Both the position numbers and the translations under genes were made by a program. A stretch of DNA of 44,545 bases from Escherichia coli. Lineage in GTDB: Bacteria > Pseudomonadota > Gammaproteobacteria > Enterobacterales > Enterobacteriaceae. Numbering within the stretch: the stretch's first letter is position 1; every line of letters starts with the position of its first letter. The notes under the pieces are model-generated. The model made no database searches, was not told where the DNA came from, and was given only the letters and a program-made list of their open reading frames with translations. The stretch is taken from the NCBI RefSeq assembly GCF_003334385.1, contig NZ_QOWN01000035.1; one strand, written 5' to 3'. Positions 13,207-15,579 of this stretch are shown piece by piece.

Positions 13207-14313
13207 ATGTTTCATCGCTTATGGACGTTAATCCGCAAAGAGTTGCAGTCGTTGCTGCGCGAACCGCAAACCCGCGCGATTCTGATTTTACCCGTGCTAA
13301 TTCAGGTGATCCTGTTCCCGTTCGCCGCCACGCTGGAAGTGACTAACGCCACCATCGCCATCTACGATGAAGATAACGGCGAGCATTCGGTGGAGCTGAC
13401 CCAACGTTTTGCCCGCGCCAGCGCCTTTACTCATGTGCTGCTGCTGAAAAGCCCACAGGAGATCCGCCCAACCATCGACACACAAAAGGCGTTACTACTG
13501 GTGCGTTTCCCGGCTGACTTCTCGCGCAAACTGGATACCTTCCAGACCGCGCCTTTGCAGTTGATCCTCGACGGGCGTAACTCCAACAGTGCGCAAATTG
13601 CCGCCAACTACCTGCAACAGATCGTCAAAAATTATCAGCAGGAGCTGCTGGAAGGAAAACCGAAACCTAACAACAGCGAGCTGGTGGTACGCAACTGGTA
13701 TAACCCGAATCTCGACTACAAATGGTTTGTGGTGCCGTCACTGATCGCCATGATCACCACTATCGGCGTAATGATCGTCACTTCACTTTCCGTCGCCCGC
13801 GAACGTGAACAAGGTACGCTCGATCAGCTACTGGTTTCGCCGCTCACCACCTGGCAGATCTTCATCGGCAAAGCCGTACCGGCGTTAATTGTCGCCACCT
13901 TCCAGGCCACCATTGTGCTGGCGATTGGTATCTGGGCGTATCAAATCCCCTTCGCCGGATCGCTGGCGCTGTTCTACTTTACGATGGTGATTTATGGTTT
14001 ATCGCTGGTGGGATTCGGTCTGTTGATTTCATCACTCTGTTCAACACAACAGCAGGCGTTTATCGGCGTGTTTGTCTTTATGATGCCCGCCATTCTCCTT
14101 TCCGGTTACGTTTCTCCGGTGGAAAACATGCCGGTATGGCTGCAAAACCTGACGTGGATTAACCCTATTCGCCACTTTACGGACATTACCAAGCAGATTT
14201 ATTTGAAGGATGCGAGTCTGGATATTGTGTGGAATAGTTTGTGGCCGCTACTGGTGATAACGGCCACGACAGGGTCAGCGGCGTACGCGATGTTTAGACG
14301 TAAGGTGATGTAA
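13207..14313 (+). CDS. ybhR: ABC-2 type transporter permease, 368 aa
   Basis: Paralogous to ybhS in architecture; last gene of the ybhGFSR efflux operon. Confidence 0.85.
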
Positions 14314-14685
14314 CTTCTTATCTTTCGCCAGCAAAGACACTACCGCCGGGCCGGCAAGGATTGCCAGCCCTGCAATTGCCAGCAAAAAGTTGTTTTCCAG
14401 AACGCGGGACAACAGCCACAGCACAATCAGCGCTGCGCCAAAATACCAGGTCGTGGTCAGCTCTTCCAGCACGTCTGCCACCTCACGCCAGCGTTGCTCG
14501 GGGTGGCGCTGAAACACCAGCATCATCACTACCGTGACACAATACAGTGCGCATAATCCCACGCCGACGTGAACCAGAGTCTTACTCATCCAGCCCACCA
14601 CCAGCAGCGCCACTACCAGTAAATGCAACATAATCTGCCAGCAACTTAGACCCGTTGCGACACGAACACGTTGTTGCCACTTCAT
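14275..14685 (-). CDS. ybhQ: inner membrane protein, 136 aa
   Basis: Hydrophobic 4-helix protein; convergent with ybhR and overlapping its 3' end by 39 bp. Confidence 0.75.
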
Positions 14686-14817
14686 GGCTTCTCTCCTGAA
14701 GAATTTATCTCTACTTACTCAGAGTACCGAACTTTACGGAAAATTCCGTAAGACCGCACCTTTTTGTGACGCCGACTACACTATTTCAATGAGATAAGAG
14801 GCAAAGACAGGAAAATT

Positions 14818-15579
14818 ATGCCCGATCAAACACAACAATTTTCGTTCAAGGTGCTCACCATCAATATTCACAAAGGCTTTACCGCGTTTAACCGACGCTT
14901 CATTTTGCCGGAACTTCGCGACGCCGTGCGTACCGTCAGCGCCGATATTGTTTGCCTGCAGGAAGTGATGGGCGCGCACGAAGTTCATCCGCTGCATGTG
15001 GAAAACTGGCCCGATACCTCGCACTACGAGTTTCTCGCCGACACTATGTGGAGCGATTTTGCCTACGGTCGCAATGCCGTATACCCGGAAGGGCATCACG
15101 GCAACGCCGTACTGTCGCGTTATCCCATTGAACATTATGAGAATCGCGATGTTTCGGTCGATGGTGCGGAAAAGCGCGGCGTGCTCTACTGCCGCATTGT
15201 GCCGCCGATGACCGGAAAAGCGATTCATGTGATGTGCGTACATCTGGGCCTGCGTGAGGCGCACCGTCAGGCGCAGCTTGCGATGCTCGCCGAATGGGTG
15301 AATGAGCTACCGGACGGCGAACCGGTATTGGTGGCGGGTGATTTCAATGACTGGCGGCAAAAAGCTAATCATCCGTTAAAAGTGCAGGCCGGACTGGATG
15401 AGATTTTTACCCGCGCCCACGGACGCCCGGCGCGCACGTTTCCGGTGCAATTTCCTCTACTACGACTGGACAGGATCTACGTCAAAAATGCCAGCGCCAG
15501 CGCGCCAACCGCGTTGCCGCTGCGGACATGGCGACACCTTTCTGATCATGCCCCTTTAAGTGCGGAGATTCATTTATGA
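14818..15579 (+). CDS. ybhP: endonuclease/exonuclease/phosphatase (EEP) family protein, 253 aa
   Basis: EEP-fold motifs (CLQEV..., GDFND, SDHAPL); first gene of ybhP-clsB-ybhN. Confidence 0.8.

Follow-up and report, generated by a model that had tools for sequence, protein, structure and literature searches.

Convergent overlapping gene pairs of prokaryotes have been analyzed since the early 2000s (Rogozin et al. 2002; Lillo & Krakauer 2007; Palleja et al. 2008). Among well-characterized genes in 338 genomes, 7% of overlaps are convergent, and this is the only orientation in which long overlaps are sometimes real. A 2007 study of Escherichia coli counted approximately 58 convergent overlaps; most of the genes concerned have no Rho-independent terminator, and their terminators must sit inside the partner gene. 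A second relevant class consists of Rho-dependent mRNAs whose precise steady-state ends fall a short way past a stable stem-loop without a U-tract; this structure blocks exonucleases, and a Rho-utilization (rut) site follows it immediately (Dar & Sorek 2018). A third is the convergent excludon, for which ExcludonFinder (Sanmartin et al. 2025, NAR) lists 165 convergent pairs, the criterion being detection in at least 50% of 58 MG1655 RNA-seq samples. The authors of that study argued that the conserved overlaps of such pairs are regulatory and reported higher synteny for excludon pairs; their p19 double-stranded RNA validation failed for convergent pairs in general.

Here, we describe the convergent pair ybhR/ybhQ in a 44,545-nt stretch of E. 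coli DNA (hereafter, the window; contig NZ_QOWN01000035.1 of assembly GCF_003334385.1). The overlap is already known (i.e., it stands in the reference annotation, and the pair is one of the 165 in the ExcludonFinder list), and it is an ordinary member of the convergent class. Our additions are the breadth of its conservation, the asymmetry of constraint between the two reading frames, an apparently selected stop position, and a conserved stem-loop at the 3' end of ybhQ that lies within ybhR. As a whole, the locus is best explained by a stable overlap with a constrained YbhR tail and with Rho-ended transcripts that finish inside the partner genes, a reading to which we assign a probability of roughly 0.78.

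The ybhR/ybhQ gene pair

YbhR is an ABC-2 type permease encoded at the distal end of the efflux operon cecR-ybhGFSR, and YbhQ is an inner-membrane protein of Pfam family PF11076 (Table 1). The original prediction held that the 3' ends of the two coding sequences overlap by 39 bp; this is exact according to both the open reading frame (ORF) list and the RefSeq annotation of K-12 MG1655 (ybhQ, 824630..825040; ybhR, 825002..826108), and an identical overlap is annotated in strain 720632, which is 100% identical. MG1655 positions (x) were converted to window positions (w) by w = 14275 + (825040 - x). A 901-bp query around the site matched 5,424 of 5,426 complete E. coli genomes at 95 to 100% identity, and both ybhR and ybhQ were annotated beneath all of these matches. 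The neighboring operons in K-12 are tightly packed, with short codirectional overlaps (ybhG/ybhF, 8 bp; ybhF/ybhS, 8 bp; ybhP/clsB, 4 bp; clsB/ybhN, 1 bp), and ybhQ/ybhR is the only convergent overlap in that neighborhood.

Table 1. Features of the ybhR/ybhQ locus (window coordinates)
Feature	Position	Strand	Description	Source
ybhR CDS	13207..14313	+	368 aa; stop TAA at 14311-14313	ORF list, RefSeq
ybhQ CDS	14275..14685	-	136 aa; stop TGA at 14277-14275	ORF list, RefSeq
Convergent CDS overlap	14275..14313	both	39 bp; 12 sense codons plus stop per gene, in register	
11-bp stem-loop	14241..14267	-	GUGGCCGUUAU-CACCA-GUAGCGGCCAC; ybhQ 3' UTR, inside ybhR CDS	
Dominant 3' end of ybhQ mRNA	14235	-	40 nt past stop, 6 nt past hairpin	Adams et al. 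2021
Peak of Rho termination region	14133	-	MG1655 825182 (+); antisense to ybhR	Adams et al. 2021
Peak of Rho termination region	14386	+	MG1655 824929 (-); 73 nt past ybhR stop, antisense to ybhQ	
Candidate rut region for ybhQ transcripts	14200..14240	-	C-rich, G-poor; directly 3' of hairpin	

The codon boundaries of the two genes share the phase 1 mod 3 in window coordinates, which places the ybhR and ybhQ codons in register: second codon positions face each other, and first positions face third positions. The ybhR stop codon is the reverse complement of the ybhQ Leu125 codon (TTA), and the ybhQ stop codon is the reverse complement of the ybhR Ser356 codon (TCA). Three sense codons (TTA, CTA, and TCA) are the only ones that place a stop on the opposite strand in this register; their combined share is 4.3% in ybhR and 2.9% in ybhQ. 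For genes that already abut, 12 consecutive codons would stay open with a probability of approximately 0.6, and the length of 39 bp is therefore unremarkable in itself.

Conservation of the overlap in Enterobacteriaceae

The locus was taken from representatives of 80 Enterobacteriaceae species, in which both stop codons were placed by tblastn and frame extension. YbhR shows 81 to 100% identity along its entire length in the 80 species. YbhQ has 817 database homologs, all matching PF11076, and 136 aa is the usual length among those of Citrobacter, Salmonella, Leclercia, and Enterobacter. The exact 39-bp geometry is present in 68 of the 80 species, a degree of conservation that is not due to chance, and both genes are intact in 65. 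Frame extension had initially scored 67 loci at 39 bp, of which two (Phytobacter; L031 and L032) proved to be false positives; the final 68 comprise the 65 intact loci and three in which ybhR is frameshifted upstream. The genera with an intact overlap include Escherichia, Salmonella, Citrobacter, Leclercia, Enterobacter, Kluyvera, Yokenella, Atlantibacter, Siccibacter, Mangrovibacter, Trabulsiella, Buttiauxella, and Cedecea, among others. This comparison establishes both stop positions as real and conserved. An earlier end of one ORF in orthologs, named at the outset as the outcome that would speak against the overlap, is not what the alignment returned, given the 65 species with an intact overlap.

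The three frameshifted loci are from Leclercia adecarboxylata NCTC13032 (L021), Kluyvera genomosp. 3 YDC799 (L035), and Citrobacter amalonaticus AUH_CA_2023_1 (L046), and the C-terminal region of ybhR is otherwise intact in each. Because all three records are complete chromosomes or contigs of near-chromosome length (4.9 Mb for L046), homopolymer errors of long-read sequencing have to be considered, and these are as likely as true pseudogenes.

The remaining species depart from the common geometry in several ways. Kosakonia cowanii (L053) has a longer overlap (48 bp). Nine of the 80 loci have no overlap, with gaps of 2 to 206 nt between the genes: three from Raoultella, three from Kosakonia, "Enterobacter" sp. 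Bisph1 and JUb54, and a strain labeled C. freundii M-21. The YbhQ proteins of these loci are approximately 145 aa long and carry a different, mutually homologous tail of approximately 20 residues, which diverges exactly at the codon opposite the ybhR stop. In Phytobacter diazotrophicus and P. ursingii (L031:3001-3399 and L032), YbhQ terminates prematurely (…AKEKRIPSKSFKV*), leaving a gap of 18 nt to the ybhR stop, and the former antisense reading of the tail (LHHLTPEHRIGR*) persists downstream as a relic, because the YbhR tail holds the sequence in place. Phytobacter is a case of recent, independent loss of the overlap.

Two further observations concern the variable side of the pair. In Raoultella, a stretch of 183 to 206 nt replaces the overlap (L070:3436-3618 in sp. 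BIGb0138; L073:3439-3644 in R. ornithinolytica). It holds two copies of an approximately 50-nt unit (…CCCGTCATCGTTC[AG]GGCTGCCTC[TG]GCGTTGGCTTCCT…), is highly structured (-61 to -99 kcal/mol), and resembles an insertion of an intergenic repeat or a miniature mobile element. Among metagenome-predicted, E. coli-like YbhQ proteins (P0002, P0003, P0008, P0029, and others), many are 157 to 165 aa long rather than 136 aa; some have apparent N-terminal extensions from an upstream start, and others match only from residue 1 to approximately residue 120, which suggests C-terminal frame changes into the ybhR antisense.

Constraint on the shared tail and origin of the overlap

Nucleotide diversity was calculated for 65 species anchored on the stop codons. 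Third-position diversity of ybhQ is 0.19 inside the overlap versus approximately 0.55 outside it, and that of ybhR is 0.33 inside versus 0.39 outside, which corresponds to the 23rd percentile of 12-codon windows. Synonymous variation of ybhR at Arg (AGA/CGN) and Tyr (TAC/TAT) codons, together with Lys/Asn variation, is read in YbhQ as S/A/T/P, V/I, and L/F/I/V substitutions. The tail of YbhR is equally conserved in species without the overlap. On the basis of this asymmetry and of the equal conservation without an overlap, the YbhR tail drives the conservation: it looks like the constrained partner, and the 12-residue YbhQ tail looks like a largely overprinted by-product.

The ybhQ stop follows a different pattern from the tail that precedes it. 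At ybhR codon -13, all 63 overlap species with Ser use TCA, which is not among the favored Ser codons; the other two have CTA (Leu), which yields a TAG stop for ybhQ in the same place. In the nine species without the overlap, this codon is TCA in six, TCG in two, and ACA in one (Fisher test, ~0.0013). The next two ybhR codons (GCG/GTG and then GCG) have nearly invariant third positions, and position 14283 has the fourth-lowest synonymous diversity of 96 conserved 4-fold-degenerate sites in ybhR. In YbhQ, the stop position and the terminal basic (Arg) residues alone appear to be selected.

Distant YbhQ homologs (33 to 51% identity; 121 to 132 aa) end near E. coli residue 123 to 125 with short basic tails of their own, and the last 12 residues of E. 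coli YbhQ would accordingly represent a lineage-specific extension onto ybhR. These distant ybhQ genes do not adjoin ybhR; they are located between moaE/ybhL-like genes and an rhlE-like helicase gene or on tiny contigs, and one of them (L083) has a canonical hairpin with a T-tract terminator directly after its stop. The ybhQ frame enters the antisense of the last 12 ybhR codons and halts there at the first in-register antisense stop, i.e., the TGA opposite the ybhR Ser codon TCA. Within Enterobacteriaceae, the relic codons TCA GCG GCG are kept in six of the nine species without the overlap, which suggests that the overlap is the older state and was later broken by insertions. The distant homologs without ybhR adjacency are uninformative as to whether the Klebsiella/Raoultella-type long tail or the overlap was the first state.

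Transcript 3' ends

No intergenic DNA separates the two stop codons, and therefore each transcription unit ends inside the other gene. Published mapping data agree with this arrangement. In the Term-seq data of Adams et al. (2021, eLife; Supplementary file 1), a "primary" 3' end of ybhQ is listed at MG1655 825080 (+) in two condition tabs, and its flanking sequence agrees with the window. Supplementary file 2 of the same study reports Rho termination regions on both strands, from bicyclomycin DirectRNA-seq with 800-nt windows that limit their resolution. The region at 825182 (+) has a Rho score of 3.95 (significance, 5e-7), and its downstream/upstream read ratio rises from 0.27 in untreated cells to 1.08 with bicyclomycin; the region at 824929 (-) has a score of 3.85 (significance, 2e-7). 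Read-through thus increases upon Rho inhibition on both strands (p < 1e-6 at the resolution of 800-nt windows). For ybhR, no 3' end is reported in the Term-seq data of that study, and its end is represented by the Rho region only.

A scan for the intrinsic-terminator consensus found none at or just after either stop codon and made no call at the hairpin 14241..14267. The sole call nearby (14357..14343, minus strand) was rejected; its T-tract is poor, and transcription from the ybhQ side reaches it ahead of the stop codon. The C:G ratio is 2.0 to 3.4 in 50-nt windows beginning 0 and 25 nt past the ybhQ stop (i.e., the first 75 nt), and the segment directly 3' of the hairpin (Table 1) is a candidate rut region that would fit the model of Dar & Sorek (2018). 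In the ybhR 3' untranslated region (UTR) (plus strand, 14308..14420), RNAalifold predicted 0 conserved pairs across 66 species; a hairpin of the E. coli sequence at 14345..14373 (plus strand) had a z score of -0.5, is not conserved across species, and was discarded.

Two local features inside ybhQ are recorded here in their own right. The segment 14345-14385 (plus strand), just upstream of the Rho-region peak at 14386, contains two copies of the direct repeat ATTGCCAGC alongside a local hairpin (GCCGGGCCGGCAAGGATTGCCAGCCCUGC). The conserved YbhQ motif LAILAGPAV is encoded in this segment, which has no conserved RNA structure across species. Adams et al. (2021) also list, in one condition, a second Term-seq end at window position 14625 (minus strand; MG1655 824690 [+]), 60 nt past the ybhQ start codon. 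It is marked "No" in the Rho test and has a second score of 4.9, above the cutoff of 3, which is probably the intrinsic-terminator score of that study. This end suggests premature termination or processing early in ybhQ.

The original prediction that the overlap leaves no room for independent terminators is contradicted by these results: the signals sit inside the coding sequence of the partner, with Rho-dependent termination on both strands and a conserved ybhQ stem-loop in ybhR. Its companion claim of complementary 3' ends on the two mRNAs is borne out by the mapped ybhQ end inside ybhR and by the transcript overlap in the ExcludonFinder list. With regard to antisense INTERFERENCE, complementarity between the RNAs spans at least 14235..14313 and probably reaches approximately 14386.

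We propose that the ribosome leaves each mRNA at the stop codon and that the untranslated antisense RNA beyond it would be ended by Rho within approximately 70 to 150 nt on both strands. The ybhQ mRNA would be trimmed back to, or would end at, the U-tract-less stem-loop in the ybhR codons, which would produce the precise 3' end at 14235. A complementary RNA overlap of approximately 150 nt (14235 to approximately 14386) would then be a structural consequence of the arrangement.

A conserved stem-loop in the ybhQ 3' UTR

The stem-loop was found as an inverted repeat that starts 8 nt past the ybhQ stop; its folding energy in isolation is -18.5 kcal/mol, and the 81-nt context gives a z score of -3.3. 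No U-tract follows it on either strand (the minus strand continues AAACUAUUCC, and the plus strand continues GACAGGGUCAGC), and a search of Rfam with 13900..14900, on both strands and with E values of up to 1, returned no match. Across 65 distinct orthologous sequences, 92% of the cells in the stem are standard pairs, compared with 24 to 58% in a control in which the 3' partners were slid by one to three columns, and seven cells are compensatory.

The stem falls in the ybhR codons for Trp-Pro-Leu ... Ala/Thr-Ala-Thr. When 96 conserved 4-fold-degenerate ybhR codons were ranked by synonymous diversity, the third positions 14265 (Ala GCC; invariant) and 14247 (Pro CCG; 63 of 66) in the stem had the lowest and third-lowest values, respectively. 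This conservation points to selection on the nucleotide sequence beyond that on the protein.

The mean stability across species is -17.1 kcal/mol for the plus strand versus -18.0 kcal/mol for the minus strand (paired test, p = 0.07), the minus strand being more stable in 34 of 57 distinct sequences. G.U cells outnumber A.C cells (61 versus 31), a count that is inflated by the closing pair. We assign the structure to the minus strand because the Term-seq end is located there and the plus-strand copy is translated. The stem-loop is kept in Raoultella although the ybhQ stop is now 56 to 206 nt away; there it may serve something besides the ybhQ 3' end or may not yet have decayed. In E. coli, we infer that it is the putative 3'-exonuclease-blocking end structure of the Rho-terminated ybhQ mRNA.

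Alternative explanations

One alternative treats the overlap as a selected regulatory device, in which transcription of ybhQ and of ybhGFSR would be mutually repressive and expression consequently exclusive (i.e., a convergent excludon), by means of RNA polymerase collision and RNase III cleavage of an RNA duplex of approximately 150 bp. The presence of the pair among the 165 of the ExcludonFinder list, the higher synteny of excludon pairs in that study, the retention of the exact overlap in many genera, and the position of the ybhQ 3' end and of both Rho regions inside the partner gene would all suit such a device. However, the conservation has a simpler account, in that an indel or a stop change either harms the constrained YbhR tail or lengthens YbhQ. 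Raoultella, some Kosakonia, and Phytobacter have lost the overlap yet keep both genes, Rho limits the antisense extension to approximately 70 to 150 nt on both strands, the p19 data did not validate convergent pairs, and neither a pair-specific anticorrelation of expression nor RNase III cleavage at the pair was found in the literature consulted. Any interference between the two units is probably slight, given their apparently weak expression. We consider the device rather unlikely, and give a regulatory role of any kind equally little weight, because no evidence of reciprocal expression was found, lineages have lost the overlap, and the double coding constraint suffices.

A related and quite improbable proposal is that the 39-bp overlap and the ybhR-embedded hairpin together form a selected module coupling YbhQ to the YbhFSR efflux pump, which may operate through transcription into the shared zone or through a cis-antisense effect of the ybhQ 3' UTR on the 3' end of ybhR. 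Were it true, the module would set the YbhQ/YbhFSR ratio and would be conserved across Enterobacteriaceae.

In E. coli, convergent genes are often separated by bidirectional terminators, and the hairpin 14241..14267 could be read as a bidirectional intrinsic (Rho-independent) terminator for both genes: it is a stable, GC-rich inverted repeat that is foldable on both strands, and it sits between the bodies of the two genes. The definition of such a terminator (an A-tract, a GC-rich hairpin, and a U-tract) describes a different element, however, as the hairpin is present but neither strand has a U-tract next to it, and the terminator scan passed it over. Moreover, the plus-strand copy is 46 nt short of the ybhR stop, and termination there would truncate ybhR; in addition, bicyclomycin-sensitive termination has been reported on both strands; we regard this explanation as very improbable.

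Least credible of all is an annotation artifact in which one ORF ends earlier or is no gene, since, despite the many long convergent overlaps in databases that are 3'-extension misannotations and despite the weak constraint on the last 12 YbhQ residues and their absence from distant homologs, neither frame has an earlier stop (a translating ribosome must therefore reach the annotated one), both proteins belong to conserved families with conserved lengths, and the ybhQ stop position itself appears to be under selection.

Comparison with known systems

ybhR and ybhQ are both real genes, and their tail-to-tail overlap is genuine and has been stable in evolution. The meaning of this goes little beyond bookkeeping, and the locus has modest worth as a clean worked example. 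It suggests that a convergent overlap can be preserved with base-pair precision in many genera mainly via one constrained protein tail, with the tail of the other partner as a passive antisense readout, and that the 3'-end stem-loop of one gene can persist via selection on the synonymous sites of the other. Were the overlap regulatory after all, it would link an uncharacterized membrane protein to an efflux pump reportedly implicated in tetracycline efflux.

As in other pairs of the convergent class, two bona fide coding sequences share their 3' ends, with conservation between species and with no sign of 3'-extension misannotation. The overlap of 39 bp exceeds most overlaps and stays under the 60-bp limit where misannotation is common. 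It is conserved in more than 20 genera, whereas most long convergent overlaps are limited to "very close species." The pair resembles the excludons of ExcludonFinder in that neighboring convergent transcripts overlap, as seen in both the published list and the Term-seq end, but here the overlap takes in coding sequence and not UTRs alone; the defining outcome of an excludon is mutually exclusive expression by way of interference or RNase III, and ybhQ-ybhR is placed in this class by transcript overlap only.

With the Rho-dependent mRNAs of Dar & Sorek (2018), ybhQ shares a U-tract-less stem-loop, a 3' end a few nucleotides beyond it, C-rich sequence, and bicyclomycin-sensitive read-through downstream. 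It differs from them in that the putative protective stem-loop is encoded in the coding sequence of a convergent gene and is apparently kept there through selection on ybhR synonymous sites. Finally, the YbhQ tail recalls overprinting by stop-codon loss: it is read from the antisense of a preexisting, constrained coding sequence and varies passively with ybhR synonymous sites. In contrast to overprinting proper, it would comprise only 12 residues and no new domain or gene, and its history would be one in which a deletion made the overlap or an insertion broke it in some lineages.
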